In this document: positions 1,111 through 47,572 of the stretch, piece by piece | Numbering within the stretch: position 1 is the first letter of the stretch | Layout: each line of letters starts with the position of its first letter | NCBI GenBank assembly: GCA_027923505.1 | Contig: BROI01000003.1 | Coordinates: forward strand, 1,364,001 to 1,428,000 | From: Mayamaea pseudoterrestris | Lineage: Eukaryota | DNA: 64,000 nucleotides | Direction: 5' to 3' | Notes under the pieces: generated by a model | What the model was told of the DNA's origin: nothing | The model's input: only the letters and a program-made list of their open reading frames with translations | Databases searched by the model: none | Program-made: the position numbers and the translations under genes

Positions 1111-1421
1111 TGCAGGATGCGAACGAAAACAGCGAAAATCGGGCAAGTCACACCGAATGTCCGATAGGGTGACACAGCGGCACTCGCGGCTCACCACAGC
1201 CTCACGATCGCGTGATGCGTGGCAGCGACGGCTTCGAAGCGATTCAACAAGTATATTGCTGAAACTAGTGCGATATAGAGTAGAAACAAGCAGACTTACT
1301 AAGCTTGAAGAGTTAAGAAAGCGATTTATTCGTCTCTCGTATTGTAGCAACTGCAAGCTTGGATTGGCCATCCAAGGACAGCTACAAGCGAAAGGTGCAA
1401 CGATTTGATTTACAAGTTACA
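1111..1421 (+). repeat. Copia 3' LTR (~311 bp, TG...CA; boundaries +/-1 nt)
   Basis: Follows the PPT. Identical by eye to 19538-19848; identity stops after GTTACA(A). Confidence 0.9.
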
Positions 1422-1528
1422 ATAATGATTGTGACTAGATTGGAATTATGAGCACTACCCTATGAATGCGACGAAGAGGAGCCTCTGAGTCAGCACTAGT
1501 TCCACGCGTCCTTCCACGCGGCACGTCA
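1422..1528 (-). repeat. Gypsy 3' LTR, cut near its end by the copia insertion
   Basis: Matches 6666-6772. The terminal ~8-10 nt seen in the other LTR are replaced by the copia LTR. Confidence 0.88.
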
Positions 1529-3371
1529 CTCGCTTCCCGGATGGTGAGATAAGATCGTTAGTCGTTGTAAGGGGTCAGGCGGCGGAAGGTTGCTTTCTGC
1601 GAGACGACTCCTTTGGAGATCTTGGCGATGCCATTCGTATAAAGAGTCTGGATTGTATACGGTCCTTTGCGAGGCGCATGTAGCTTTCGCAAAATACCAC
1701 CAGTTTCAAGTAGAACTTTGTCTCCCACTTTGTAGTCGTGTCGAATTCGTTTTGAGTTCTCGCGTGCATTGTTTGCAACTGCTGCGTCGAGTCGACCTCG
1801 GTACCGCTGTCCAATCGACTTGGAAAGATAAATCAAAAAGCATATCCCGACCAAATACCAATTGTCCAGGAGGCGTCCAACACCAAATGGATTGTAGAGC
1901 GAATAGCCCAAGCGCATTTACAGAGTAGGTCTGTCCATGGGTCTGGGAATTTGGTATTCCTCAAGTTCACAAGTGCGGAGCATGTTTCCAACGCGTCTGG
2001 TGGACTCGCTCGTACACTAGCCCTGTGGATTCTTTACCGTTGTCGGTGTAGGCTCAATGCCGAAGCTTTCAAGCATCTCTGGAATCCTCTGCCAAGAAAT
2101 TCGTTGCCATTATACGAAAAATGCATTCCACCGGACGAGGATATCGACACAGCCAACATCTGTCAAAGGTTTGAGCAATGTGATCAGCTGTCTTATCCTT
2201 TACCTCCATCACCTCAACCAACCCGTTACTTGGATCTGCCATCGTCATTGCGTTTAGCGATCGAGTAACACCGTCTTTTCCAGTGATTGTATATGGTCCG
2301 ATAAGGTCAACACATACTGTGTGCCACGGATGGACTTCAACATTGTCCTTTAGAGGAAGCTTGCCGTACTTTGGGCGAGGCTTCTTGTATACTTGACAAG
2401 TGTGACATTTCTTCACAAACTCGTCCACGTCCTTCGCTATGGTAGGCCACACCAAGCGTTGACGGATTGTTTTCTCTGTTCGTTTTGAACCCGGGTGACA
2501 TAGGTTGTCGTGGTACCATTGAATGATTGGCTCGCGCAAGGGCTGCGGAATATATATTTTTCCACGATACAAGATCAATTCTTTGCCCTCGACCACTTGT
2601 TTCGTAAACTCGGTCGAACGATTTAGCACGGCCTGCAGTTGATTATCATTTTCTTGATGTTGCGCAATGACAGCTGTTTTTAAAGGATATAATTCTGTTG
2701 AGCCAGGCGCTTCTGGTCTCGTGGCGGTTGCGGCGACTGTTTCAGACTGCTCGGCCGTGAAACGTAATTCTTCGTCAAAGCCAGCGGATTGCAGCGAGAA
2801 GTCTCCGTCCATTTCCGCTAATTTAGTTGCCATTAGGCACAGCTCCTCATGTTGAGGGAGATCAGATGGATTTATTGGTTCTGACTGTTCGTCAAAGTCT
2901 AAACGACTCAATGCGTCCGCTGCAGGGTTGTCTTCGCCCTTTAGATAGTAAAAGATTGGCCCATATTCTTCGATAAGCCATCGCCAGCGTTGAACGCGGT
3001 TTGACGCATGTTTTGTTTTGGGATCCACATTATTCTTGTGGTCGGTATAGACTCGGAGTTCGTGTCCAAGCAAGATGTTTCTGTATTCCTTGAGTGTCTC
3101 CACGATTGAGAGCATCTCGCGTTCGCCCACCGTATAGCGTTGTTGCGTCTTCGTGAGTTTTCGGCTGTAGAAAGCGATCGGTACACCATTCTGACTAATC
3201 ACTGCACCAAGCTGATAATCGCTTGCATCCGTATGGATATCAAATGGTTGCGTAAAGTCAGGGAACGCCAGCATTACATCAGCAGCAATGGATTTCTTTG
3301 CTTGCTCGAAAGCGTGCTGCTCCTTCTCCCCCTAGCAGGTATGCAACAGAAAGTAGTATCACTATGCCGTT

Positions 3372-3441
3372 AAAAGTAGCGCACCTCGGAATCGAACCAA
3401 GGATAACCGGCTATATCACCTCTAAACACGCTGCTACTTTT
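3372..3441 (-). ncRNA. tRNA-like module in the TRIM 3' LTR (not a functional tRNA; no anticodon arm)
   Basis: Minus strand reads AAAAGTAGC-AGCG-TGTTTAGAGGT (A-box-like)...CCTTGG-TTCGATT-CCGAGG (T arm, B box)-TGC-GCTACTTTT, closed by a 9-bp inverted repeat. Confidence 0.72.
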
Positions 3442-3538
3442 CCGTCTGCTAGTGTACTATATGCTGCATACAAGGCACCATGCACTATGACAAGTAAAGG
3501 TATCGCTCTGGTTGCTGTTTTTCGTGTGCAACCTGCTA

Positions 3539-3545
3539 CTCCCCT
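3539..3545 (-). promoter_or_regulatory. TRIM polypurine tract
   Basis: AGGGGAG directly before the 3' LTR on the minus strand; same as the copia PPT core. Confidence 0.8.
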
Positions 3546-3790
3546 AGCTTTGCGCGTCATAGTGCTAACTCGTCTTCCGTTTCAGCTGGCATTTTCGTCT
3601 CGCGGGGGAATGTCACTTTTCAGTTTTTCCTGCGGCGTTTCGGGCTCGGCGCATCTTTGTGCACTCCCCAGGGTCCGCGACTCCCCATCGTTCGTTCGTG
3701 ACAAACCCGTGCAACCAGTGAATTTTTTTTTTTTCTTCGCTTGATTCGATCGCAACTCGAACCAGCAGCCTCAGTCCAGATCTCTCGATA

Positions 3791-3802
3791 GGGACGCTAC
3801 CA
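3791..3802 (-). promoter_or_regulatory. TRIM primer-binding site, probably initiator tRNA-Met
   Basis: TGGTAGCGTCCC immediately after the 5' LTR. TGGTAGC is complementary to ...GCUACCA-3', as in the yeast Ty1 iMet PBS TGGTAGCGCC. Confidence 0.75.
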
Positions 3803-3841
3803 TAGCAGGTATGCAACAGAAAGTAGTATCACTATGCCGTT

Positions 3842-3911
3842 AAAAGTAGCGCACCTCGGAATCGAACCAAGGATAACCGGCTATATCACCTCTAAACACG
3901 CTGCTACTTTT
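3842..3911 (-). ncRNA. tRNA-like module in the TRIM 5' LTR (putative internal Pol III promoter)
   Basis: Identical copy of 3372-3441. Confidence 0.72.
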
Positions 3912-6657
3912 CCGTCTGCTAGTGTACTATATGCTGCATACAAGGCACCATGCACTATGACAAGTAAAGGTATCGCTCTGGTTGCTGTTTTTCGTGTGCA
4001 ACCTGCTACCCCCACGGAAACGCTTGCTTAGGATCAAGCTTTGTCAGCGCCGTAAGCGGAGCCAAGATGTGCGATCGTCGCTTCCACATATCACGGTAAT
4101 AATTAATCAACCCAAGAAATGAGCGAAGCTGAGAAACATTTTGGGGTCGCTTTATGCGTAAGATCGCATCCACTTTATTTGGAAGAGGCCGAATGCCAGT
4201 CGGCGTGAGCCAGTAGCCCAAATATTCAAGCTCTTGCGTAGCAAAGCTGCTTTTGGCAATATTCACACGTAAGCCTGCCTTGCTCAAACGCTCGAGTACT
4301 TGTTCCACTTTGGATAAATGATCCTCAAAGGAGTCCTTTGTGATTGTAAGGAGATCGTCCAAGTAGGTACGTACAAAGTCAAGTCCCTCCATCAGGATAC
4401 TCATTTTTTCCTGGAAGATGTCCGGACTGCCAGCGACTCCCATTGGGAGCCGGCAATATTCGTACTTTCCCCATGGTAGTACAATTGTGCAAAGTTGCGA
4501 GGCGGCTGGCGACAGGCGGATTGTATAGTATCCCATGTTGAGATCGAGCGACGTTGCATACGTAAATCCTCCAAGCTTCAACAGAGTGTCTTGGATATGC
4601 GGGATCGGAAAAGGCTTGCGTTTAACCAAGTTGTTGAGCCGACGAAAATCGGAAATGAATCGAACTGTTCCATTTTTCTTTGGAATGATAAAGGTTGGTG
4701 CTGCCCATTCACTGCCACCCGAGCGTCGTAGTACTCCCAGGTCGCAAAGGCGTGCCACCTCCTTGCGTAAAGTTGCTTCGTGGACTTGCGGAATATTATA
4801 TGGTCGCGCATGATATGGCTGCGCGCCTTCCTTCAGTTCAAAATCAACCGGCGTCGTGTCCCAAGAGCCGAGAGTGCCGTCGAACAAATGTTCAAATTTG
4901 AAAAGCAAACTCTTTAATTGAGTCTTTTGCGCTGTCGTTAAATGATTCATTGAATCAACGGTTTGATTGATATCGGCTTTCTCATATTTGGCGTCAAGGA
5001 TTCGACTGGCTCGTTCCGTCGCTTCCATGAGCACTTCTCCTTCGTGAGCTTGTGCCATTGTTTCGTCAACAAAAAACGCTTGTTCCGTTTGTGCGTCCTT
5101 GTCGTCAGGCAAATGCTTGTCTAGCGCCCGCTTCATTGGAATCGTAATATTATCCCATCGTAATTGTCCAGTGGACCAAAGGATGTCTATCCCAAGAGCA
5201 CGTAAGAGATCGCGCCCAATAATCATTTCATAGTCGTTTGCTCCATGAGCAGTTTCATCGACGGCCATGCGCCATGTGATTTCCTTGCTTGGCGCGAATT
5301 CCGGAAGACCGAAGGTTAGTACCGCTTCGTGTCTCGTCAAAAACGACCCGCCGTTAGTGTGCCAAATGGTCTCCTTGGAGGCTTTGGTGGATTGAAACAA
5401 ATCATCCGGTATTTTATCGCGCTTTATAATTGTTTTGCTACAGCCAGTGTCTAGTAAGACTTTAAATAGTTTAATTGGCTGTTTGCCTTCGCTACCAGTT
5501 TTAATCACTACCGTTAATTCTGTGACAAGGTCAACAGGGGTAACGTGACTGGTTAGTCGAGGCCGTCGTGTTTTCGTGTACGGAAATAGCGCAAACAGTG
5601 CTTCCTTGGCACTCACCTCCGAGTCGGAGCCGCAGGCTTCATCCAGTTCCTCAATGAGGTCGTCGTCACTATCGACATGTTGCATCGCATCGACGCGTTC
5701 ATTGCCTTTCTTTTTGGCGTTTTCTTTGTTCTTTTTCTTGAAGCACTTGTCTTCAGTATGACCAGGCTTCTTGCAAAATCCACATTTGTCCTTGCCACTA
5801 GGAGCTTGTCCCTCGGCGCGGTGCGGACGGTCATGGTTGCTCTGCTTGTTGCGCTGCGAACGATCTTCGTTTCGTCGAGGCTGCACGGTAGACCAAGCGT
5901 TCTGTCCGCGCTCAATTGCCTGCAAATGATCACGAACTTCCTCCAGCGTACGTTCCTCCCACTCAAAACCAGAGTTGTCCATTGCTGCGCGAAAGCCAGC
6001 TGGGAGCGCGTCGACTAGAAGTTGTTTCAGCTTGTCGTCGTCGAGCACTTCACCCTTGCCCGTGAGGTAGATGTAATCCTTTTGCATGATTTGCATACGG
6101 TTGAAGAGGTCACCCACTGTCATGTCCTTTGGCTTGCCAAGATTCTTGTTCATAAAGCGCATCTGGTCGCGCTTGCCGCTCTTGCCCATGATGCGAATTG
6201 CTAGCTCATTGAGCGCTTGTTCAAAATCATCCTTGGAATTTTTATCCTTGCCTTCTGCAATAGTATTCCAATTATCCTTGGCTTCTCCACACAAAAATTG
6301 CGACATGCCTTGGAACATGGATGTTGTTGTAGTCAAAGGGCGGTGTTCGACATATTCTTCGAACGTGCGTCGCATGTGACAGAACGTCTCCGCATCCTTT
6401 GGGTCGTAGCACGTGTAGGTCTTGTCGTACTTTGAACTTGCATCGTCGGGATCAAGTCGGACTTTCACCTTGAATGTTTGAGGATGAGTAGGTGTTTCCA
6501 CAGGGCTTGGGTACAAGGGAATTGGTGCGCGGAAGCGCGGGTTGCTCGCGTTGCTGTTGTCGACGGGCTTGGAAAAAGCTGGGGCCATGGTGATCGTTGG
6601 TCTTGTTTGACTTGCGAAGTGTTAACACTATGCCTTGTCTCACAAGGTAGAATACTG

Positions 6658-6772
6658 TGACAGTAATAATGATTGTGACTAGATTGGAATTATGAGCACT
6701 ACCCTATGAATGCGACGAAGAGGAGCCTCTGAGTCAGCACTAGTTCCACGCGTCCTTCCACGCGGCACGTCA
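6658..6772 (-). repeat. Gypsy 5' LTR (TGAC...GTCA termini; may extend to 6656)
   Basis: Direct repeat of 1422-1528, with short inverted termini, upstream of the gag ATG at 6588. Confidence 0.88.
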
Positions 6773-9002
6773 CGTCTGCCGCAACTAGGCGTCGAAGCGA
6801 CTCAGACCTTAAAGCCATCGCTTGACGTAATATGCTACTCTTTGGATTTTTATTCGATTTCGCTCGTTCCGTTTTGATGCAGAAATCGAGTGAAGTTGCT
6901 ATTGTTTCATGCATTTAGACGATGCGGCGGTGACTGCTCGGTGGCGACTTGACGACACGCACGTCTCGCTTACACGGCAATTGGTTCCATTTCCTGCGCG
7001 TGTCACGACGCGGACGTTACTTCGACGGAAGCCTTGGTTGCTACTGCTGCGCATAATGTGATTCTTTGCATTTACTGTTACTGGTGCGGCAATAGCGGCT
7101 TGTCGACAATGCGAGAGCCGTCGACCTGACGAACGACATGCTTTGCGTCGACTCATGGAACGCCAATGCATGGCGGCAGTGTTGGCAGCGGTTTGCAATG
7201 ATGAGCACACGAATTCAAGCAGCGTCCACATTTGGAACGAAGATTGCTCGGCAATCCTTTCGTTGGCGGTTGGCGATGCATGAAAAAGACTTGCAAGTAT
7301 GTTGCGACAAAAGTGATTGACGACCGAGGCGTTTTGACACTTGGAATCCATGCCGCAAAGCATTTTGTATTGCTTGTCGACGAGATATCTTAACCCAAAA
7401 AGGCTGCAGTATTCGATGCGTTGTCGGTGTGAATGAGTGACGAACAATGTCGAAAATGACGACGGCAATCGGGTTCGACTAGGCAGTGCAGCATTCCACA
7501 ATCAACATTGACGCGGTGATGGGTTTGACTTGACAGCATTCAACAATCAACATTGGCGCGGTGATGCATATGCAAGGTGGCACTGCATTTGGCCGAGTTT
7601 GGCGATTGATTCAACTAGCAAGTGGACGAATTGGCGCAAGACTTGTTGTGTTATTGGCTTGATCAGCGACTGATGCAATTGACGTCTGGCTGGAAATTTG
7701 CTGGTCGTGTTGCCGAGGTGATCGGTTTCGGCGCCAACATTAGCTTGCATGCTAGTGCGTTGCAAGCATGCCTTCTCTCCTGTCGCCGTGAATGGAGTGC
7801 AAACATGATGCAATGGTCTTTTAGCGGAACTGGTTTGCATCTGTTGAGGCTTCCAGGCGCTGACATTGAGAAGACGAGTAGTACTTTGACGATGTGTCGC
7901 TTGCGGATCGCTTGCGGATCGCTTGCGGACTGAATTGCTTGTGTCGAAGCGCACGGACGACACACTGGCCACTGTTGGTTTACGAGTGCTTACTCGCCTG
8001 CACCGTGCATCAAATGGGAATTGAGTCAACTCCGTGCGAAATATAGAAGGATTATTCGGCAAAGCTCGCTTTAGAGACTGTCTTGTGACCGGAACCAACT
8101 CGGGCAGGTTACTCTCGGCTCGATTTATAGGATGGACAATAAAGATTGCGTACGCATTATCAACAACGTCGCGCTATTCGAGACCGTGACTTCTTTCAGC
8201 AGATGAGCGATGAGGGTTTTTTTAATTGCGGCGAAGCAAAGCCTACGCTTCATGCGGGCAAACCGCCCCGAGCAAGGTGTGGTAACATGTCAAAACATAC
8301 TGCAATGGCGCCGTTGAATGCCAGCAGATTGTCGCATGCATGTGATCTTAGCTCTGCTCCAATATTATTGCAAGCGAATTCTGCGGCAAGCAATTTCGCT
8401 CTGATTAGTCAGCCTTTCCTGAATAGCTGACATGACATTGGCTTCCAGCGGATACGATTATCATGTGGAGCAAAGTTCACGGCAGATGGTGCTGCCATGC
8501 TGAAACCTCAGGGAGTTATTGATTGCACATATAAAATTGATTGGCGACGGGCCTTGACGAAGCGCGCGAAGCAAATGGCAACAATGTCTTGCCAGTCCAA
8601 CGTAAGCGCTCGATTGTTTGGCTGTATGATATAGTTGGGCAAGTGACGCAAGTAATGAAGCGTTGCGCAAATTGGATCATGAGTCTTTAGTGCGGCCTTC
8701 ATGTCGTCTAATCAAAAAGCATGCGCAACAGGATGTCCTTGCACAAACAAAGCTTATATTGAACCGGAATCTTTTTGCATGGCTTTGCAATCGCTCTAGC
8801 GTTCGGGAGGCAGTGCAGCTGCCATAGTACACCATGCATTTGCGCCTTCGTGCTGGCGAGGCGACGAGTAATCACACTTAGTTCAAAAATTTAAATTGAT
8901 TATACTTTTACCCTATGATAAGCAAACTGTAGCAGCAAGTGGCACAAAACTGTTTCACAAATCTCAAAATCGCCGTTGCCATTGCATTGCTAGCATGAGT
9001 GT

Positions 9003-17318: not shown

Positions 17319-19848
17319 AACTCATCGGACGCACGTTCGTAAGGGGAACACGAAAAACGGTTAGAAAATGCGAGCGACTGTATGCGAATATATCGAAGTA
17401 CGCGATAACGAGCTACTGAAACGACGAAAGGTTTCCCTAATCAAAATGGGAGAGGAGCCAGCGAAAGACTTAATAAGTTACAACGAACTGTCGGATTTAA
17501 TCGAACGACAGATGGACGAAGATATACGAAACGATCCGGCGACTCAGTGGGTATTCACGAAGGTAATCGGACACGAGCTTAATTTGAAACCGAACGATCC
17601 GACATGCCAAGGAAGTTCAAGTAACGTTCTCGTCGAATGGACTGACGGAACGACGACGTGGGAGCCTCTCGCGATCATGAAGAAGGACGATCCGATAACG
17701 ATCGCAGAGTATGGACTCAAGCACGGCTTACTCGACAAGCCAGGATGGAAGCAGCTGGAGCATTACACTCGGAAGCGAAAGAAGTTTCGACAGATGGTAA
17801 CAGCGGCGAAACGAAAATCGAAAGCAAACGGCGTACGCTACAAATTCGGCGTAAGGTTGCCGCGCAATTATAAAGATGCGAAAGCTCTCGACGAGATCAA
17901 CGGCAACACGCTGTGGACGGATGCGATTCGAACGGAATTAAATCAGATAAATGATTACGACACGTTCGCAGATCAAGGAGTCGGTAAGGTTATGCCGGCG
18001 CCGTGAAACGAATAAACGTGCACATGATATTCGATGTCAAGCACGATTTGCGACGGAAAGCACGACTCGTTGCAGGAGGACATATGACAGAGCCGCCGAA
18101 GGATTCAGTTTACCCGGGCGTTGTGTCATTGCGAAGTCTCAGACTGGTAGCGATGTTAGAGGAACTCAACGGTCTGGAACTGTGGGCAGCTGACGTCGGC
18201 AACGCATACTTGGAAGCGAAAACGAGAGAAGGTTTATATCGTGGCAGGTCCGGAGTTCGGGGAGCTCGAGGGTCACACGCTCACGATCGTGAAGGCATTA
18301 TACGGTCTTCGCACGTCAGCAGGCGCACGCTGGCACGAGCACTTTGCAGACACGCTCCGCGACATTGGCTTCATGCCGTGTATCGCAGAACCGGACGTGT
18401 GGATGCGCGATAAAGGCACGCACTACGAATACGTTTGTGTGTATGTCGACGATTTAGCGATAGCGATGAAGAACTGGAAGGAACTAACGGATCTTTTAAT
18501 TGAGAACTACAACTACAAGTTGAAGGGCGTCGGTCCATTGGCATATCATTTGGGCGCAGACGTTTGGCGAGACGACGACGGCGTACTCTGCTTCGGAGCG
18601 AAGAAGTACGTCACAAGACTACTAGCGAACTACAAAGAAATGTTCGGCGAGGAACCGCGACCGCAGACAAGTCCACTACGCGACGGCGATCATCCGGAAC
18701 TCGACGAAACGAAAGAACTTGACGACGACGGAATTGCGAAGTATCAATCGATAATTGGTGCGTTGCAATGGGCAGTAAGTTTATGTCGATTCGACATTCA
18801 CTGTGCTGTCATGACTATGGGGGAGATTCCGAGCTGCGCCACGAGCGGGGCACTTGGAACGGTTGAAGCATATTTGCGGATACTTACGAAGATACCCGGA
18901 TGGAGCGATTCGATTCAACGTTTCGATTCCAACGGACGAGCGATACGCGACAGTTGACAAGATGGATTGGGATTACAGTGTGTACGGCAAGATCTGCGAA
19001 GAGCTTCCGTGGAACATGCCCACGCCGCGCGGCAAGGCGGTGCGAATGTCAACGTTCGAAGATGCGAACCTGTACCACGATTACACGACGGGACGGGCAG
19101 CGATGGGCATGCTACACATGTTGAATGGAACAGTCGTTGATTGGTTTTCGAAACGCCAAGCGACGGTCGAGACGGCGACGTACGGCTCGGAGTTTGTAGC
19201 AGCGAGAGTGAGCACGGAGCAGATCATGGATCTTCGCTTCACGCTACGCATGTTGGGAGTTCCGCTCGACGGACCTTCATGGATGTTTGGAGACAACAAG
19301 TCGGTAACGCAAAGCAGCAACCTACCGCACTCTAGTCTGACGAAGCGACACAATGCACTGGCATTTCACCGTGTACGCGAAGCGATTGCGGCGGGAATTA
19401 TTAATTTCAACCACATCATGGGAACGACAAACCCGGCGGATGTACTTACCAAGTTTCTTCCACGGGCTACGGCAAGCAAGCACTTAAAGAACCTGCTCTT
19501 CAAGGAATCTAACTATTAGGTATGACTTGAGGGGAGTTGCAGGATGCGAACGAAAACAGCGAAAATCGGGCAAGTCACACCGAATGTCCGATAGGGTGAC
19601 ACAGCGGCACTCGCGGCTCACCACAGCCTCACGATCGCGTGATGCGTGGCAGCGACGGCTTCGAAGCGATTCAACAAGTATATTGCTGAAACTAGTGCGA
19701 TATAGAGTAGAAACAAGCAGACTTACTAAGCTTGAAGAGTTAAGAAAGCGATTTATTCGTCTCTCGTATTGTAGCAACTGCAAGCTTGGATTGGCCATCC
19801 AAGGACAGCTACAAGCGAAAGGTGCAACGATTTGATTTACAAGTTACA
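17319..19848 (+). mobile_element. 5'-truncated, frameshifted Ty1/copia (CoDi-like) copy with a chromodomain-like module, RT, RNase H and 3' LTR (19538-19848)
   Basis: LIGRTF start, NVLVEWTDGTTTWEPL, RKARLVAGGH, ADVGNAYLEA, KALYGLRTS, YVDD. 18427-19848 is nearly identical to 1-1421 (extra G at ~18820; AATCCG vs AACTGG). Confidence 0.95.
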
Positions 19849-22800
19849 AGAGACAAAACCCACTGTCATGCGCCAGCCTGTTCATGCCATTGAAAGTGAC
19901 CCACAGAGGGGCCTCCACGGCACCTGGCTTGCATGGTTAGATGCGCCATTGTGTGCTGAGTCCAGCCATATTGTTGAATTCATGAAACAGTTAATCAGGC
20001 AGCCCTGGTTTGCATTTCAATCTTTTCCTCAAGTGACAACCCCCACTGTCATGCGCCAGATTGTCATGCCATTGAAAGTGACCCACAGAGGGCCTCCATG
20101 GCACCTGTCTTGCATATATAGATGCGCCATTGTGTGCTGAGTCCAGCCATAATGTTGATTTCATGAAACGGTCGATCAGGCAGCCCTGGTTTGCATTTCA
20201 ATCTTTTCCTCAAGTGACAACCCCCTTTGTCATGCGCCAGACTGTCATGCCATTGAAAGTGACCCACAGAGGGCCTCCACGGCACCTGTCTTGCATGGTT
20301 AGATGCGCCATTGTGTGCTGAGTCCAGCCATATTGTTAAATTCATGAAGCTGTCAATCAGGCAGCCCTGGTTTTCATTTCAATCTTTTCCTCAAGTGACA
20401 ACACCCACTGTCATGTGCCAGACTGTCATGCCATGGAAAGTGACCCCCAGAGGGCCTCCACGGCACCTGTCTTGCATGGTTAGATGCGCCATTGTGTGCT
20501 GAGTCTAGCCATATTGTTGAATTCATGAAGCTGTCAATTAGGCAGCCCTGGTTTGCATTTCAATCTTTTCCTCAAGTGACAACCCCCGCTGTCATGCGCC
20601 AGACTGTCATGCCATTGAAAGTGACCCACAGAGGGGCTCCACCGCACCTGTCTTGCATGGTAAGTTGCGCCAATGTGTGCTGAGTCCAGCCATATTGTTG
20701 ATTTCATGAAACGGTCAATCATGCAGCCCTGGTTTGCATTTCAATCATTTCCTCAAGTGACAACACCCGCTGTCATGCGCCAGACTATCATGCCATTGAA
20801 AGTGACCTACAGAGGGGCCTCCACGGCACCTGGCTTGCATGGTTAGATGCGCCATTGTGTGCTGAGTCCAGCCATTTTGTTGAATTCATGAAACAGTTGA
20901 TCAGGCAGCCCTGGTTTGCATTTCAATCTTTTCCTCAAGTGACAACACCCACTGTCATGCATCAGACTGTCATGCCATTGAAAGTGACCCACAGAAGGCC
21001 TCCATGGCACCTGTCTTGCATGTTCAGATGCGCCACTGTGTGCTGAGTCCAGCCATATTGTTGATTTCATGAAACGGTCAATCAGGCAGCCCTGGTTTGC
21101 ATTTCAATCTTTTCCGCAAGTGACAACCCCCGCTGTCATGCGCAGACTGTCATGCCATTGAAAGTGACCCACAGAGGGCCTCCACGGCACCTGTCTTGCA
21201 TGGTTAGATGCGCCATTGTGTGCTGAGTCCAGCCATATTGTTGAATTCATGAAACGGTGGATCAGGCAGCCCTGGTTTGCATTTCAATCTTTTCCTCACG
21301 TGACAACACCCACGGTCATGCACCAGACTGTCATGCCATTGAAAGTGACCCACAGAGGTCCTCCATGGCACCTGTCTTGCATGGTTAGATGCGCCATTGT
21401 GTGCAGAGTCCAGCCATATTGTTGATTTCATGAAACGGTTGATCAGGCAGCCCTAGTTTGCATTTCAATCTTTTCCTCAAGTGACAATCCCTGCTGTCAT
21501 GCTCCAGACTGTCATGCCATAAAAGTGACCCACAGAGGGGCCTCCACAGCACCTGTCTTGCACGGTTAGATGCGCCATTGTGTGCTGAGTCCAGTCATAT
21601 TTGAATTCATGAAAGGGGTCAATCAGGCAGCCTTGGTTTGCATTTCAATCTTTTCCTCAAGTGACAACCCCCGCTGTCATGCGCAGACTGTCATGCCATT
21701 GAAAGTGACCCACAGAGGGGCCGCCACGGCACCTGTCTTGCATGGTTAGATGCGCCATTGTGTGCTGAGTCCAGCCATATTGTTGAATTCATGAAACAAT
21801 CAATCAGGCAGCCCTGGTTTGCATTTCAATCTTTTCCTCAAATGACAACACCCACTGTCATGCGCCAGACTGTCATGCCATTGAAAGTGACCCACAGAGG
21901 TTCTCCACGGCACCTGAATTGCATGGTTAGAAGCGCCATTGTGTGCTGAGTCCATCCATTTTGTTGAATTCATGAAACGGTTGATCAGGTAGCCCTGGTT
22001 TGCATTTCAATCTTTTCCTCAAGTGACAACCCCCGCTGTCATGCGCAGACTGTCATGCCATTGAAAGTGATCCACAGAGTGCCTCCACGGCACCTGTCTT
22101 GCATGGCTAGATGTGCCAATGTGTGCTGAGTCCAGCCATATTGTTGATTTCATGAAACGGTTGATCAGGCAGCCCTGGTTTGCATTTCAATCTTTTCCTC
22201 AAGTGACAACCCCCGCTGCCATGCGCCAGACTGTCATGCCATTGAAAGTGACCCACAGAGGGGCCTCCACGGCACCTGTCTTGCATGGTTAGATGCGCCA
22301 TTGTGTGCTGAGTCCAGCCATATTGTTGAATTCTGGAAACGGTTGATCAGGCAGCCCTAGTTTGCATTTCAATCTTTTCCTCAAGTGACAATCCCTGCTG
22401 TCATGCTCCAGACTGTCATGCCATAAAAGTGACCCACAGAGGGGCCTCCACGGCACCTGTTTTGCATGGCTAGATGTGCCAATGTGTGCTGAGTCCAGCC
22501 ATATTGTTGATTTCATGAAACGGTTGATCAGGCAGCCCTGGTTTGCATTTCAATCTTTTCCTCAAGTGACAACCCCCGCTGCCATGCGCCAGACTGTCAT
22601 GCCATTGAAAGTGACCCACAGAGGGGCCTCCACGGCACCTGTCTTGCATGGTTAGATGCGCCATTGTGTGCTGAGTCCAGCCATATTGTTGAATTCTGGA
22701 AACGGTTGATCAGGCAGCCCTGGTTTGCATTTCAATCTTTTCCTCAAGTGACAATGCCAGACTGTCATGCGCCAGACTGTCATGCCATAGAAAGTGACCC

Positions 22801-25800
22801 ACAGAGGGCCTCCACGGCAACTGTCTTGCATGGTTAGATGCGCCATTGTGTGCTGAGTCTAGCCATATTGTTGAATTCATGAAGCGGTCAATCAGGCAGC
22901 CCTGGTTTGCATTTCAATCTTTTCCTCAAGTGACAACCCCCGCTGCCATGCACCAGACTGTCATGCCATTGAAAATGACCCACAGAGGGCCTCCGCGGCA
23001 CCTGTCTTGCATGGTTAGATGCGCCATTGTGTGCTGAGTCCAGCCATATTGTTGAATTCATGAAACAGTCAGTCAGGCAGCCCTGGTTTGCATTTCAATC
23101 TTTTCCTCAAGTGACAATGCCAGACTGTCATGCCATTAAAAGTACCCACAGAGGGGCCTCCACAGCACCTGTCTTGCGTGGTTAAATGCGCCATTGTGTG
23201 CTGAGTCCAGCCATATTGTTGAAATCATGAAACGGTCAATCAGGCAGCCCTGGTTTGCATTTCAATCTTTTCCTCAAGTGACAACCCCCGCTGTCATGCA
23301 CCAGACTGTCATCATGCCATAGAAAGTGACCCCCAGAGGGCCTCCACGGCACCTGTCTTGCATGGTTAGATGCGCCATTGTGTGCTGAGTCTAGCCATAT
23401 TGTTGAATTCATGAAGCTGTCAATTAGGCAGCCCTGGTTTGCATTTCAATCTTTTCCTCAAGTGACAACCCCCGCTGTCATGCGCCAGACTGTCATGCCA
23501 TTGAAAGTGACCCACAGAGGGGCCTCCACGGCACCTGTCTTGCATGGTTAGTTGCGCCAATGTGTGCTGAGTCCAGCCATATTGTTGATTTCATGAAACG
23601 GTCAATCAGGCAGCCCTGGTTTGCATTTCAATCATTTCCTCAAGTGACAACACCCGCTGTCATGCGCTAGACTATCATGCCATTGAAAGTGAACAACAGA
23701 GGGCCTCCACGGCACCTGTCTTGCATGGTTAGAGCGCCATTGTGTGCTGAGTCCAGCCATTTTGTTGAATTCATGAATGGGGTCAATCAGGCAGCCCTGG
23801 TTTGCATTTCAATCTTTTCCTCAAGTGACAACCCCCGCTGTCATGCGCAGACTGTCATGCCATTGAAAGTGAACAACAGAGGGCCTCCACAGCACCTGTC
23901 TTGCATGGTTAGAGCGCCATTGTGTGCCAAGTCCAGCCATTTTGTTGAATTCATGAAACGGTTGATCAGGCAGCCCTGGTTTGCATTTCAATCTTTTCCT
24001 TAAGTGACAACCCCCCGCTGTCATGGGCCAGACTGTCATGCCATTGAAAGTGACCCACAGAGGGCCTCCACGGCAACTGTCTTGCATGATTAGATGTGCC
24101 ATTGTGTGCTGAGTCCAGCAATATTGTTGAATTCATGAAACAGTCAATCAGGTAGCCCTGGTTTGCATTTCTCTTTTTTTCCTCAAGTGACAACACCCAC
24201 TGTCATGCGCCAGACTGTCATGCCATTGAAAGTGACCCACAGAGGGCCTCCACGGCACCTGTTTTGCATGATTAGATGCGCCATTGTGTGCTGAGTCCAG
24301 CCATATTGTTGAATTCATGAAACGGTCCATCGGGCAGCCCTGGTTTGCATTTTAATCTTTTCCTCAAGTGACAACACCCACTGACATGCGCCAGACTGTC
24401 ATGCCATTGAAAGTGACCCACAGAGGGGCCGCCACGGCACCTGTCTTGCATGGTTAGATGCGCCATTGTGTGCTGAGTCCAGCCATATTGTTGAATTCAT
24501 GAAACGGTCAATCAGGCAGTCCTGGTTTGCATTTCAATCTTTTCCTCAAGTGACAGTGACAGACTGTCATGCCATTGAAAGTGACCGACAGAGGGGCCTC
24601 CACGGCACCTATCTTGCATGGTTAGATGCACCATTGTGTGCTGAGTCCAGCCATATTTATGAATTCATGAAACGGTTGATCAGGCAGCCATGGTTTGCAT
24701 TTCAATCTTTTCCTCACTTGACAACCCCCCCTGCCATGCCCAGACTGTCATGCCATTCAAAGGGACCCACAGAGGGCCTCCACGGCACCTGTTTTGCATG
24801 GTTAGATGCGCCATTGTGTGCTGAGTCCAGCCATATCATTGATTTCATGAAACGGTTGATCAGGCACCCCTGGTTTGCATTTCAATCTTGTCCTCAAGTG
24901 ACAACCCCCGCTGTCATGCGCGGGACTGTCTTGCCATTTGAAAGTGAACCACAGAGGTGCCTCCACGGCACCTGTCTTGCATGGTTAGATGCGCCATTGT
25001 GTGCTGAGTTTAGCCATATTGTTGATTTCATGAAACGGTTGATCAGGCAGCCCTGGTTTGCATTTCAATCTTTTCCTCAAGTGACAACACCCACTGTCAT
25101 GGGCCAGACTGTCATGCCATTGAAAGTGACCCACAGAGGGCCTCCATGGCACCTGTCTTGCATGGTTATATGCGCCATTGTGTGCTGAGTCCAGCCATGT
25201 TGTTAAATTCATGAAACGGTCAATCAGGCAGCCCTGGTTTGCATTTCAATCTTTTCCTCAAGTGACAACACCCACTGTCATGCGCCAGATTGTCATGCCA
25301 TTGAAAGTCACCCACAGAGGGCCTCCACGGCACCTGAATTGCATGGTTAGATGCGCCATTGTGTGCTGAGTCCAGCCATATATTTGATTTCATGAAACAG
25401 TCGATCAGGCAGACCTGGTTTGCATTTCAATCTTTTCCTCAAGTGACAACCCCCACTGTCATGCACCAGACTGTCATTTTATTGAAAGTGACCCACAGAG
25501 GGCCTCCACGGCACCTGTCTTGCATGGTTAGATGTGCCATTGTGTGCTGAGTCTAGCCATATTGTTGATTTCATGAAACGGTTGATCAGGCAGCCCTGGT
25601 TTGCATTTCAATCTTTTCCTCAAGTGACAACACCCACTGTCATGCGCTAGACTGTCATGCCATTGAAAGTGACCAACAGAGGGGCCTCCACGGCACCTGT
25701 TTTGCATGGTTAGATGCGCCATTGTGTGCTGAGTCCAGCCATATTGTTGAATTCATGAAACGGTCAATCAGGCAGCCCTGGTTTGCATTTCAATCTTTTC

Positions 25801-26506
25801 CTCAAGTGACAACCCCCACTGTCATGCGCCAGATTGTCATGCCATTGAAAGTGACCCACAGAGGGGCCTCCACGGCACCTGTCTTGCATGGTTAGATGCG
25901 CCATTGTGTGCTGAGTCCAGCCATATTGTTGAATTCATGAAACAATCAATCAGGCAGCCCTGGTTTGCATTTCAATCTTTTCCTCAAGTGACAACACCCA
26001 CTGTCATGCGCCAGACTGTCATGCCATTGAAAGTGACCCACAGAGGGCCTCCACGGCACCTGAATTGCATGGTTAGAAGCGCCATTGTTTGCTGAGTCCA
26101 GCCATATATTTGGTTTCATGAAAAAGAGTCAATCAGGCAGCCCTGGTTTGCATTTCAATCTTTTTCTCAAGTGACAACCCCCACTGTCATGCGCCAGACT
26201 GTCATGCCATTGAAAGTGACCCACAGAGGGCCTCCACGGCACCTGTCTTGCATGGTTAGATGTGCCATTGTGTGCTGAGTCTAGCCATATTGTTGAATTC
26301 ATGAAACGTATGATCAGGCAGCTCTGGTTTGCATTTCAATCTTTTCCTCAAGTGACAACACCCACTGTCATGCGCCAGATTGTCATGCCATTGAAAGTGA
26401 CCCACAGAGGGGCCTCCACGGCACCTGTCTTGCATGGTTAGATGCGCCATTGTGTGCTGAGTCCAGCCATATTGTTGAATTCATGAAACGGTCAATCAGG
26501 CAGCCC
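19849..26506. repeat. Tandem satellite array, ~181-bp monomer, ~37 copies
   Basis: Recurrent CTGTCATGCGCCAGACTGTCATGCCATTGAAAGTGACCCACAGAGGGCCTCCACGGCACCTG...CAATCTTTTCCTCAAGTGACAAC at ~180-182 bp spacing. Confidence 0.98.
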
Positions 26507-26942
26507 ATATCATAGCTGCTTGGAATCAGTTATGGATGATTTTTTTGCACCAAACTCACCGCAAGCATGTCCCCAAGCATAGTTAAACAGGATTGATGGA
26601 ACAACACTACAATTGGGGGTAGATTTCGAAGGCCACACACTGTAGCACCATGGAGCTGGTTCCTGTGTGGATGTCTGAACTGCCCTCCCATACCGTAGCT
26701 GCTAGAAATCAGCTTTGGATTTTTTAATGCACCAATCTCACCGCAAGCACGTCTTCAAGTATAGCCAAACTGGATTGATGGAGCAAGACTAAAATTGGGG
26801 TAAGGTCAATCTCCCTTGGGTAAGGTTTGAATTCCATGCACTGTAGCACCATGGACTGGCTTTTGTGTAAATGTCTGAAATGCCCTCCCATACTGTAGCT
26901 GCTAGGAATCAGCTATGGATGATTTTTGTGCACCAAACTCAC
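26504..26942. repeat. Second tandem repeat family, ~2.3 diverged copies (183 and 200 bp units)
   Basis: CCCATA...TAGCTGCT.G.AATCAG recurs at 26504, 26687 and 26887. Confidence 0.88.
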
Positions 26943-27286
26943 ATCCTTATCTCAGATGCACTACAAGACAAGTTGACAGGCTAGTGTCTCCATGGACTGG
27001 TATGTGATTGGTGACAACTTGTCACCAGTCTCAGCCAGCAGTTGCCATGATTATCAAATGCCCATACCTTGAGCCATGTGTATGCTCAAATCAAGCCAGA
27101 ATGGTGCTAACATCCTTATTTCAAATGCGCTACAAGAGAAGTTGACAGGCTAGTGTCTCCATGGACTGCAATGTGATTGGTGACAACTTGTCACCAGTCT
27201 CAGCCAGCAGATGCCGTGGTTTTCCAATGCCCATACCTTGAGCCATGTGTATGCAAAAATCAAGCTAGATTGGTGCTAACATCCTT
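26941..27286. repeat. Third tandem repeat family, 169-bp unit, 2 copies
   Basis: ACATCCTT recurs at 26941, 27110 and 27279. Each unit has the hairpin TGGTGACAA-C-TTGTCACCA. Confidence 0.9.
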
Positions 27287-47146: not shown

Positions 47147-47220
47147 GGTGGACTTGATCGAGTTTCGACGAGTAAACGCAGCGCAACGCAACGACGAGCG
47201 ACGTCGGTGTCGCTCCGTGA

Positions 47221-47572
47221 ACGTCACAAGGCAATAGTATGAAACGAGTGCCAGTGTCAATAACGTCACAGGGCATTAATACAAAACGAGTGCCAGTGAA
47301 AACTGCGTCACAAGGCAATAGTACGAAACGGGTTCCAGTGAAAATTGCGTCACAAGGCAATAGCACGAAACGAGTGCCAGTGAAAACTGCGTCATACGTC
47401 AATAGCGCGAACGAGTGCCAGTGAAAACTGCGTCATAAGGCAATAGTGCGAAACGAGTGCCAGTGAAAACTGCGTCTTAAGGCGATAGTGCGAAACGAGT
47501 GCCAATGAAAACTACGTCATAAGGCTATAGTCTGAAACGAGTGCCAGTGTCAATTACGTAAGGCAATAGTAC
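47221..47572. repeat. 42-bp minisatellite, ~8 copies, in a divergent intergenic region
   Basis: Unit AAACGAGTGCCAGTGAAAACTGCGTCACAAGGCAATAGTACG. Confidence 0.95.

Follow-up and report, generated by a model that had tools for sequence, protein, structure and literature searches.

The locus analyzed here lies in a stretch of 64,000 nucleotides (hereinafter the window) from Mayamaea pseudoterrestris and raises the question of whether a short LTR element lodged in a larger retrotransposon could be transcribed by Pol III from a promoter of tRNA-gene origin. The original prediction, made from the letters of the DNA, had described a very recently inserted TRIM of a stramenopile, comparable to Helenus, with a tRNA mimic in each LTR. 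The reading that we favor, to which we assign a probability of roughly 0.55, is that of a recently inserted diatom TRIM of the Helenus type, presumably made by Pol III, with each LTR holding a tRNA-gene relic that keeps the A and B boxes and a run of four T (T4). The stramenopile host found support: one protein encoded in the window has 120 listed relatives, and the five readable organism names in that list all belong to diatoms.

Anatomy and insertion of the TRIM

Dissection of the repeat structure (Table 1) yielded an element of 676 bp whose sense strand is the minus strand; read on the plus strand, it has neither a PBS nor a PPT at the LTR borders. The two LTRs are identical at 206/206 positions, both by pairwise comparison and in a repeat search, and their ends, TAGCAGGT and ACCTGCTA, constitute an 8-bp terminal inverted repeat. 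The PBS, TGGTAGCGTCCC, is unique in the 64-kb window. Just two ORFs are found in the interior (126 aa, antisense; 49 aa, sense), and neither has a Pfam match at E≤1, which points to the absence of gag/pol coding capacity. The predicted TRIM with two identical 206-bp LTRs, a PBS, a PPT and a non-coding interior is borne out: the element combines two short direct LTRs and a length below ~1 kb with all of these parts, and our analysis adds a TSD and an empty site.

Table 1. Coordinates in the window of the TRIM, its tRNA-like modules and the surrounding gypsy element
Feature	Positions	Strand	Remarks
Left TSD copy CCCC	3329..3332	.	inside C-run 3328-3332; 5 C on either flank
Right TSD copy CCCC	4009..4012	.	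inside C-run 4009-4013
3′ LTR (element sense), 206 bp	3333..3538	-	termini TAGCAGGT...ACCTGCTA
5′ LTR (element sense), 206 bp	3803..4008	-	match to 3333-3538
tRNA-gene-derived module, 3′ LTR	3376..3458	-	LTR sense 81-163; 83-nt cloverleaf, ARAGORN -ps80
tRNA-gene-derived module, 5′ LTR	3846..3928	-	box A 3912-3921, box B 3858-3868, TTTT 3842-3845
Box A TAGCAGACGG, 3′ LTR copy	3442..3451	-	LTR sense 88-97; ~tRNA positions 8-19
Box B GGTTCGATTCC, 3′ LTR copy	3388..3398	-	within T arm
TTTT, Pol III terminator-like, 3′ LTR copy	3372..3375	-	1 base past discriminator
PPT AGGGGAG	3539..3545	-	adjoins 3′ LTR
Non-coding interior, 264 bp	3539..3802	-	A12 run 3723-3734 and three GGGGAG(T) motifs
PBS TGGTAGCGTCCC	3791..3802	-	complementary to tRNA 3′ end ...GGGACGCUACCA; adjoins 5′ LTR
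Host Ty3/gypsy element	1421..6773	-	LTRs 1421-1529, 6665-6773; pol ORF split by TRIM

The TRIM cuts the pol gene of the host gypsy element between RT and RNase H, with the Pfam domains RVP and RVT_1 in 4009-6621 and RT_RNaseH and Integrase_H2C2 in 2072-3331; the 109-bp LTRs of this host are themselves identical (109/109). A contig from the public sequencing run X1 represents the empty site, joining 3328 to 4009 precisely, with six C and the gypsy pol in frame. As each flank of the TRIM has five C and the in-frame empty site six, 4 bp were duplicated upon insertion, a count that, with the TSD lying within a homopolymer, is also compatible with 5 bp plus a 1-nt indel. At 4 bp, the TSD falls in the range of 4-6 bp that characterizes TRIMs. 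That the insertion is recent, as claimed, is supported by the identical LTRs of the TRIM, a host element whose LTRs are likewise identical, and the empty-site contig.

Further copies were recovered from the sequencing runs. In run X7, a contig carries the LTR end (3979-4008) without any difference, fused to a different flank, which matches a 169-bp repeat of the window at 27019-27036 and 27188-27205. The element is present in 8/8 listed public runs from two studies, and the near-identical copies in these runs show two differences, both in the interior. Contigs bearing the element have depths of 685, 38.8 and 17.2 (runs X1, X5 and X8), as against 16.7, 2.1-3.0 and 2.0-2.2 for the flanks, i.e., a ratio of 8-41x, in which contig depth does not equal copy number. 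These data also bear on the notion that there is no mobile element here, merely a local tandem duplication amounting to 1.44 units of 470 bp. Formally, LTR-interior-LTR does amount to a 470-bp repeat, and the contigs collapse it; however, the precise empty site with its 4-bp duplication, LTRs directly abutted by PBS and PPT, the terminal inverted repeats, the second junction with a different flank and an element depth far above that of the flanks render this notion extremely improbable.

We additionally detected a candidate autonomous partner, a contig of 5414-6268 nt in 4/4 runs examined, which matches 3792-3827 with four mismatches and shares the PBS and the final 25 nt of the LTR; its depth (530.9, 29.6, 16.6 and 15.7) is near that of the TRIM contigs. 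Given the identical LTRs, the empty site, the near-identical copies across two studies and this similarly abundant candidate partner, the TRIM family looks young.

The tRNA-like module of the LTRs

With relaxed settings (-ps80), ARAGORN delineated a degenerate 83-nt cloverleaf with a long variable arm in the LTRs. Box A directly follows the acceptor strand, preceded by T8-A9, and matches the Helenus motif TRGC...YGG except that base five is A rather than Y; it is one D-loop base shorter than an 11-nt box A. Box B is perfect in both LTRs, and these two copies are the only matches to GGTTCRANNCC in the 64-kb window. It lies in a T arm (CTTGG/TTCGATT/CCGAG) with 5/5 stem pairs, while the acceptor stem has 6/7 pairs, the D stem 3/4, and the anticodon stem 4/5, with two G-U pairs, on a loop of 8 nt. 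At the 3′ end, a single C separates the discriminator from TTTT; sense-strand runs of at least four T occur in the element nowhere but behind the two modules, although their absence elsewhere is not significant (1 observed vs 0.68 expected). Boxes A and B are spaced, and the terminator is placed, as in a working tRNA gene. Unless leaky, the T4 just past the module would halt Pol III in the 5′ LTR at ~90 nt. Separately, positions 78-83 of the LTR read ATATAG, which could act in a Pol II promoter.

The prediction of a sense-oriented module in each LTR with box B in a T arm therefore stands; the A box that it had proposed, TGTTTAGAGGT, does not, being a poor fit to the consensus and falling in the anticodon-loop region of the 83-nt cloverleaf. 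Its acceptor-like stem is recovered as a long hairpin, the predicted MFE fold. The supposed lack of an anticodon arm is true solely in this hairpin register: in the cloverleaf register a D arm and an anticodon arm, both weak, are present alongside the long variable arm. The MFE folds do not surpass those of shuffled sequences (z -1.37 and +0.9).

Could the likeness to a tRNA be a chance feature of an ordinary TRIM LTR? By itself, box B has an expectation of 0.92 per 64-kb window, relaxed ARAGORN calls are frequent in random sequence and at noise level here (44 calls in the real window vs 34.6 per shuffled window), a covariance-model match is absent, and very many windows were scanned at the first stage. 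We set against this a composite test, devised after the cloverleaf had been seen, that demands box B, a T stem of 3/3, an acceptor stem of 6/7 or better, box A starting right behind the acceptor, and T4 no more than 10 nt away. Both LTRs pass and 0/300 shuffled windows do; among the 1219 relaxed B boxes that the 300 shuffles contained, 17 were accompanied by the T stem and acceptor, and none of these 17 by box A. Rough arithmetic from the shuffle counts places the chance of the composite at ~1e-7 to 1e-6 per window, before a sense-oriented position in a TRIM LTR is required, and we consider coincidence very unlikely.

A functional tRNA gene was ruled out: with default settings ARAGORN found 0 tRNA genes in the element, the Rfam tRNA model stayed without a match at E≤10, even when only 105 nt were searched, the anticodon loop has 8 nt instead of 7, and the cloverleaf, at +1.8 kcal/mol, is unstable. 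The covariance-model check suggested with the original prediction called no tRNA in the module. Given the lack of a default ARAGORN or Rfam call and the unstable cloverleaf, the module is a tRNA-gene relic with a long variable arm, not a tRNA.

Transcription and priming

From these motifs we infer that the TRIM uses Pol III. TFIIIC would bind boxes A and B of the 5′ LTR, and Pol III would start at about LTR position 70-80, pass the weak T4 of the 5′ LTR and then U5, the PBS, the 264-nt interior and U3, and stop at the T4 of the 3′ LTR. The predicted RNA of ~560 nt, in which the tRNA-like module would serve as the R region, falls in the length range of SINEs and TRIMp3 (Kojima 2024, PMC10886601). 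A cellular tRNA ending ...GGGACGCUACCA may, judging by complementarity, prime reverse transcription at the PBS, with Gag, RT and integrase probably supplied in trans by an autonomous LTR retrotransposon, for which the ~5.4-6.3 kb contig is the candidate; integration would then generate the 4-bp duplication that the empty-site contig shows.

A competing explanation, possible in our view and clearly the less probable of the two, is that Pol II transcribes the same TRIM as it does ordinary ones, with the tRNA relic as a passenger, e.g., a captured tRNA gene or tRNA-derived SINE whose boxes look intact for no other reason than a young capture or a young family. The failure of the tRNA detectors and the decayed RNA structure are consistent with this, as are the T4 adjoining the module, which speaks against long Pol III transcripts, the ATATAG at LTR 78-83 as a possible TATA box, and a candidate partner with LTR end and PBS in common, as in ordinary TRIM-partner pairs. 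So too is one diverged partial copy in run X5 (14 differences in 127 nt, depth 2.5), in which box B is altered at two places, one of them consensus-breaking, and T4 is lost, while the LTR terminus is free of listed differences (3803-3838; those near a contig end go unlisted); this single copy gives no sign of the boxes being the best-kept part. Against a passenger, all specified positions of the box A and B motifs match (base five being A vs Kojima's Y, with one D-loop base fewer), while 3/4 of the non-T stems bear mismatches or G-U pairs. Intact boxes with decayed stems are the pattern to be expected where the promoter, and not the RNA, is kept. The A-B spacing and terminator placement of a working tRNA gene likewise argue for promoter function, and there are precedents in Cassandra and Helenus, both interpreted as having Pol III promoters (PMC7215508, PMC10886601).

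The terminator placement could alternatively mean that each LTR encodes a separate T4-terminated Pol III RNA of ~90 nt with a role of its own, such as a primer for its own PBS, paralleling the proposal that the 5S part of Cassandra is a separately transcribed short RNA. T4 does stand one base beyond the discriminator, and the acceptor and T-arm half is the best preserved in the fold. In a primer route, RNase Z and the CCA-adding enzyme might, for example, act on the RNA as a minihelix-like substrate. The 3′ end of the module plus CCA is complementary to the PBS at 10/12 positions, the first eight contiguous, and the encoded positions match at 7/9 (P ~0.001 at fixed register, by our own arithmetic); however, the non-encoded CCA accounts for three of the eight contiguous pairs, two mismatches fall inside the 12-nt PBS, and a perfectly matching cellular tRNA is the simpler primer. 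The module has no stable tRNA fold, and Kojima, who raised the own-primer idea for Helenus and sought such complementarity, found none and rejected it (PMC10886601). We accordingly view a separate small RNA as improbable, and less probable again its specific version, in which the trimmed, CCA-tailed RNA pairs with its own PBS as a self-carried RT primer.

Relationship to known small-RNA-bearing elements

Like tRNA-derived SINEs (SINE2), the element is short, non-autonomous and partner-dependent and keeps a degenerate tRNA-gene head for its A and B boxes; in contrast to them, it has LTRs, a PBS and a PPT, indicative of LTR-retrotransposon rather than LINE machinery. Classification as a tRNA-derived SINE was rejected on these grounds, with the A12 run being internal instead of a 3′ tail. 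Cassandra offers another parallel, in that it is a TRIM whose LTRs include a small-RNA gene equipped with a terminator and an internal Pol III promoter, has a PBS complementary to a tRNA 3′ end, and tends to collapse or form LTR-interior arrays (PMC7215508). It differs in having a 5S module (boxes A, IE and C) where the present element has tRNA-type boxes A and B, in its PBS (TGGTATCAGAGC vs TGGTAGCGTCCC), and in that its transcription was experimentally shown, whereas here it is predicted from motifs. Rfam scans found no 5S rRNA match in the element at E≤10, and with no 5S module in the LTR, Cassandra/Ajax (5S-derived TRIMp3) was rejected.

Non-autonomous LTR elements are already known in stramenopiles: published accounts give 27 putative TRIM/LARD and a putative SINE for Phaeodactylum tricornutum (Phatr3; PMC5859163) and report TRIMs/LARDs in Ectocarpus (PMC3145265). 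The passages of these accounts consulted here make no mention of a tRNA-like LTR module (PMC5859163, PMC3145265). P. tricornutum is described as being without gypsy elements, whereas the present window has one.

The closest counterpart is Helenus, the class of TRIMs with tRNA-derived sequence in their LTRs described in 2024 and placed in TRIMp3, most members of which have a box A of TRGCY plus YGG and a box B of GGTTC (Kojima 2024, PMC10886601). The present element shares the short LTR-PBS-interior-PPT-LTR layout (676 bp vs 311-1263 bp), a sense-oriented tRNA-like module per LTR with box A TRGC...YGG and box B GGTTC and no functional tRNA, a 4-bp TSD as in animal Helenus, and a PBS complementary to a tRNA 3′ end. 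Its tRNA-derived LTR sequence is recognized by the composite pattern, with the detectors negative, and its boxes read TAGCA...CGG and GGTTCGATTCC. By Kojima's definition it is thus a Helenus-type TRIM (TRIMp3), set beside Helenus by its features. The differences are the A at the fifth base of box A, where Helenus has Y; a module 3′ end partly complementary to the PBS, for which Kojima found no equivalent; and a module uncalled by ARAGORN and Rfam, whereas tRNAscan-SE, which Kojima used together with Censor to identify the tRNA-derived sequence, predicts tRNAs in many Helenus (PMC10886601). Pol III transcription is unvalidated for Helenus as well, according to Kojima (PMC10886601).

The hosts also differ, this one being a diatom and those of Helenus fungi, animals and Selaginella only (Kojima Table 1, Table S1). 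As originally anticipated, no stramenopile Helenus turned up in a word search of the main text, in Table 1 or in Table S1 of Kojima 2024 (PMC10886601), and the origin of the present element is likely independent of that of the described Helenus. If our reading is true, TRIMs with a tRNA-gene promoter would occur in stramenopiles too, beyond fungi, animals and plants, backing a repeated origin of this design. The LTRs of such TRIMs would spread box B/TFIIIC-type sites and tRNA-like matches, which can mislead tRNA and TE annotation, and a culturable diatom with a young family could allow a direct test of Pol III synthesis. What is new here is the extension of a class known since 2024 to the diatom lineage.

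Anatomy of the element and its insertion site

The two LTRs of the TRIM at window 3333–4008 (676 bp), which the original prediction had called identical, proved to be so by blastn, by recount and by a repeat search, and an 8-bp inverted repeat ends each of them (TAGCAGGT...ACCTGCTA). The predicted PBS and PPT both abut the LTR borders; in the plus-strand reading of the element neither is present, and the sense of the element is therefore the minus strand, as had been proposed. The PBS is complementary to a tRNA 3′ end of the form ...GGGACGCUACCA, and the matching primer tRNA would end GGGACGCUA(CCA); U72 and A73 hint that it may be an initiator-type tRNA. Just two ATG ORFs occur in the element, a low-complexity antisense frame of 126 aa and a frame of 49 aa, neither with a Pfam match at E<=1, in agreement with the interior having been described as non-coding. 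The 126-aa frame, which begins within the tRNA-like module and takes its poly-Phe end from the T12 run, is probably spurious. By blastn, neither LTR nor interior recurs elsewhere in the 64-kb window.

Features of the TRIM, its tRNA-like module (83-nt register) and the surrounding window
Feature	Window position	Strand	Description
TRIM LTRs	3333–3538 and 3803–4008	minus	direct repeats, 206/206 identical
PBS	3791–3802	minus	TGGTAGCGTCCC, directly after upstream LTR
PPT	3539–3545	minus	purine run AGGGGAG, directly before downstream LTR
TRIM interior			264 bp, with an A12 run at 3723–3734
Antisense ORF, 126 aa	3364–3744	plus	probably spurious
tRNA-like module	3376–3458 and 3846–3928	minus	putative cloverleaf, LTR sense 81–163
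Box B	3388–3398 and 3858–3868	minus	GGTTCGATTCC, LTR 141–151
Acceptor			AGTACAC/GTGCGCT, 6/7 paired
D arm			after T8-A9, 3/4 pairs
Anticodon arm			weak stem, 8-nt loop (TTAG)
Variable arm			long
T arm			CTTGG-TTCGATT-CCGAG
3′ end of module			discriminator A, then C, then TTTT (LTR 164–167)
Host Ty3/gypsy	1421–6773	minus	LTRs 1421–1529 and 6665–6773, 109/109 identical; 109 bp, unusually short
Direct repeat, 1423 bp	1–1422 and 18427–19849		99.7% identical, 18.4 kb apart
Satellite, 6.7 kb	19847–26506		181-bp unit, 36.9 copies, 90% matches, 363-bp higher-order period
169-bp unit	26941–27286		two tandem copies, near-palindrome inside
ORF, 774 aa	38797–41121	minus	mRNA_triPase (Cet1-like beta-chain), capping guanylyltransferase and its C-terminal domain
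Tandem repeat, 42 bp	47220–47572		8.5 copies, 84% matches, just beyond a ZIP transporter ORF

The TRIM interrupts a long minus-strand ORF with Pfam domains RVP and RVT_1 in 4009–6621 and RT_RNaseH and Integrase_H2C2 in 2072–3331; the ORF is the pol of a Ty3/gypsy element. Gypsy elements are reported missing from P. tricornutum and present in other diatoms. No matching TSD was found at the ends of the host gypsy element. The first copy of a 1423-bp direct repeat ends exactly at its 3′ LTR (1421), and the second exactly where the 181-bp satellite begins. Possibly the host gypsy entered a junction between repeat and satellite; alternatively, the 1423-bp pair may be the LTRs of a larger element.

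We compared contigs of four public sequencing runs (X1, X5, X7 and X8) with window 2900–4450. A contig of 4602 nt from X1 (depth 16.7) extends from 2900 to 3328 and then continues straight to 4009, with no difference on one side and a single one on the other; it is the empty site of the TRIM. Since the filled site has five C on each flank (3328–3332 and 4009–4013) and the empty contig six, a junction that by frame arithmetic leaves the gypsy ORF in frame, 4 bp (CCCC) were duplicated; in such a homopolymer, a 5-bp duplication plus a 1-nt indel is strictly also compatible. The empty contig may come from the other haplotype or from another near-identical gypsy copy, and whichever its origin, the TRIM insertion is younger than the gypsy sequence of that contig.

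The tRNA-like module of the LTRs

The box B claimed at the outset is present in both LTRs, the only two places in the window where GGTTCRANNCC is matched, against a chance expectation of 0.92 per 64 kb. With default settings ARAGORN found no tRNA in the sequence of the whole window or of the element, and the Rfam tRNA model gave no match at E<=10 in searches of 951, 91 or 105 nt; Rfam matches to sno_ncR3 (16.4 bits vs a gathering threshold of 88), mir-728 and RMST_1 lay far under threshold and were taken as chance. At 80% thresholds ARAGORN delineated an 83-nt cloverleaf in each LTR, a call that as stand-alone evidence is at noise level (44 calls in the window vs 34.6 per shuffle with -ps80). 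In this register the sequence TAGCAGACGG (LTR 88–97) directly follows the acceptor strand. The textbook box A reads TRGCNNA..GG. TAGCAGACGG fits both this pattern and the box A of the Helenus elements, TRIMs with tRNA-derived LTR sequence (TRGCY, YGG; Kojima 2024, PMC10886601), the exception being its fifth base, A. The A box had originally been placed at TGTTTAGAGGT, which in the 83-nt register is the anticodon-loop region; the earlier observation is largely borne out, with its anatomy revised.

A composite scan then required a box B, the three T-stem pairs that this motif leaves free, 6/7 or more acceptor pairs at any total length from 68 to 95, a box A directly after the acceptor and a T4 at most 10 nt away. 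Both LTRs pass the scan, whereas 300 window shuffles yielded 1219 relaxed B boxes, of which 17 also had T stem and acceptor, 0 also box A, and 0 were complete, in a comparison whose scan was devised after the structure had been seen and whose criteria are the standard ones of a tRNA gene. Because the criteria are standard in this sense and 0/300 shuffles gave a complete match, we accept, from sequence, the derivation of the LTR module from a tRNA gene. The parent would be a tRNA of the long-variable-arm type, and the relic of its anticodon loop reads TAG/TTA.

The cloverleaf has a computed energy of +1.8 kcal/mol. The predicted fold is instead the T arm together with the long acceptor-like hairpin of the original prediction (–17.2 kcal/mol over the 83 nt and –23.2 when the flanks are included), in neither case significantly more stable than shuffles. 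By these predictions the RNA of the module is not a tRNA. Intact boxes beside decayed stems are the pattern that retention of the DNA promoter, rather than of the RNA, would leave, an inference biased by how the register was arrived at.

Further copies and a candidate partner

Between 88% and 96% of the element's sampled words are present in each of eight public runs from two studies. Contigs of the element collapse to one LTR plus the interior (~500 nt), with depths of 685 (X1), 38.8 (X5), 15.6 (X7) and 17.2 (X8) as compared to flank contig depths of 16.7 (X1), 2.1–3.0 (X5) and 2.0–2.2 (X8), with no flank contig from X7; contig depth is not equivalent to copy number, and the higher element depth is a sign of a multi-copy family. 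In a 68-nt contig from X7, the terminal 30 nt of the LTR (3979–4008, 0 differences) lead into another flank, which over its initial 18 nt is identical to the window's 169-bp repeat at 27019–27036 and 27188–27205. This junction is a second TRIM insertion site, and the 169-bp repeat family a second target. Apart from two adjacent interior bases (3728–3729), the copy in the window agrees with those in X5, X7 and X8, and a low-depth X5 fragment is diverged (14 differences in 127 nt). The family looks young, and is probably still active. A metagenome scan with a 19-nt LTR-end pattern returned 5 loci, all with just 19–26 nt alike and nothing beyond, which we set aside as chance matches and not relatives; collections of viral contigs and genome contigs gave 0 matches.

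The TRIM must obtain its proteins in trans. The host gypsy was rejected as the mobilising partner, since it differs from the TRIM both at the LTR ends and in what follows the 5′ LTR. A better candidate for the autonomous partner is a contig of 5414–6268 nt recovered from 4/4 runs, which matches 3792–3827 (the PBS together with the final 25 nt of the LTR) with 4 mismatches. The letters beside this match resemble the TRIM interior adjoining the PBS, and the depth of the contig (530.9, 29.6, 16.6 and 15.7 in X1, X5, X7 and X8) tracks that of the TRIM. Its flanking motifs are absent from the 64-kb window, as is any second copy of the PBS. Since its LTR diverges from the TRIM LTR just upstream of the common 25 nt, it probably lacks the tRNA-like module; partners without the module are expected for TRIMp3, the TRIM class to which Helenus belongs, by Kojima 2024 (PMC10886601).

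The 3′ end of the module plus CCA would be complementary to the PBS at 10/12 positions, the first 8 contiguous; 7/9 genome-encoded positions match, for which, with the register fixed, our own arithmetic gives a chance of ~1 in 1000. In the same study (PMC10886601), such complementarity was sought in Helenus and none was found. Common descent or chance may have given the module and the primer tRNA the same top of the acceptor stem; the bolder reading, in which the module supplies the element with a reverse-transcription primer of its own, we consider highly improbable.

Pol III transcription and the place of the element among TRIMs

An ERGIC/ERV protein encoded in the window has 669 relatives at E<=1e-20. 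The five readable names among the matches listed (best 120 of 669) are all diatoms, none of them close (Fistulifera solaris 56%, Seminavis robusta 54%, Fragilaria crotonensis 52%, 'Syned...' 54% and Nitzschia inconspicua 51%), which supports the diatom host initially assumed. A protein-atlas search, by contrast, gave bacterial FGGY clusters and was uninformative as to taxon. The window also has a 774-aa single ORF, by its domains a predicted fusion of a fungal/protist-type triphosphatase with a guanylyltransferase.

The text and tables searched of Kojima 2024 (PMC10886601) place Helenus in fungi, animals and Selaginella alone, and name no diatom, stramenopile or oomycete. In the literature searched we found no description of tRNA-bearing LTR or TRIMp3 elements in diatoms, and the PBS string led to unrelated papers only. 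Annotations for Phaeodactylum (PMC5859163) and Ectocarpus (PMC3145265) include putative TRIM/LARD and SINE elements, and the family might already be catalogued in the supplementary TE tables for these organisms, in Repbase or in Dfam. Structurally, the proposal that this diatom element is a Helenus-type TRIM is supported; the part of it that has the TRIM driven by Pol III stays an inference.

A working Pol III promoter is open to doubt because the tRNA detectors are silent, the fold is unstable and T4 stands directly behind the module. The sequence ATATAG at LTR 78–83, possibly a TATA-like motif, also counts against it; as an upstream Pol III TATA we rejected this motif, which overlaps the start of the module in the 83-nt register. 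The diverged X5 copy has nine listed differences (LTR sense 113, 120, 130, 146, 151, 155, 164, 166 and 170). Two of these fall in box B, where the change at R57 is tolerated by the consensus and that of C62 to T breaks it, one lies in the acceptor and two abolish T4; the LTR terminus 3803–3838 has no listed difference, differences near contig ends going unlisted. This copy certainly does not show conservation of the boxes; it is probably dead and, as a single low-depth copy, decides nothing.

If Pol III does drive the TRIM, transcription would begin within the 5′ LTR at about LTR 70–80, on the upstream side of box A, pass the weak T4 of that LTR and stop at the T4 of the 3′ LTR. The module would then constitute the R region of an RNA of ~560 nt. 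The two T4 runs behind the modules are the only sense-strand runs of T4 or longer; avoidance of T-runs was discarded as a Pol III signal, the count not being significant vs the 0.68 expected. A diatom family that looks young and is probably still active would lend itself to a test of the TRIMp3 idea. The predicted ~560-nt RNA would lie inside the range given for SINEs and TRIMp3 by Kojima 2024 (PMC10886601), and the LTRs of Cassandra, as described in PMC7215508, likewise have Pol III promoters and terminators.
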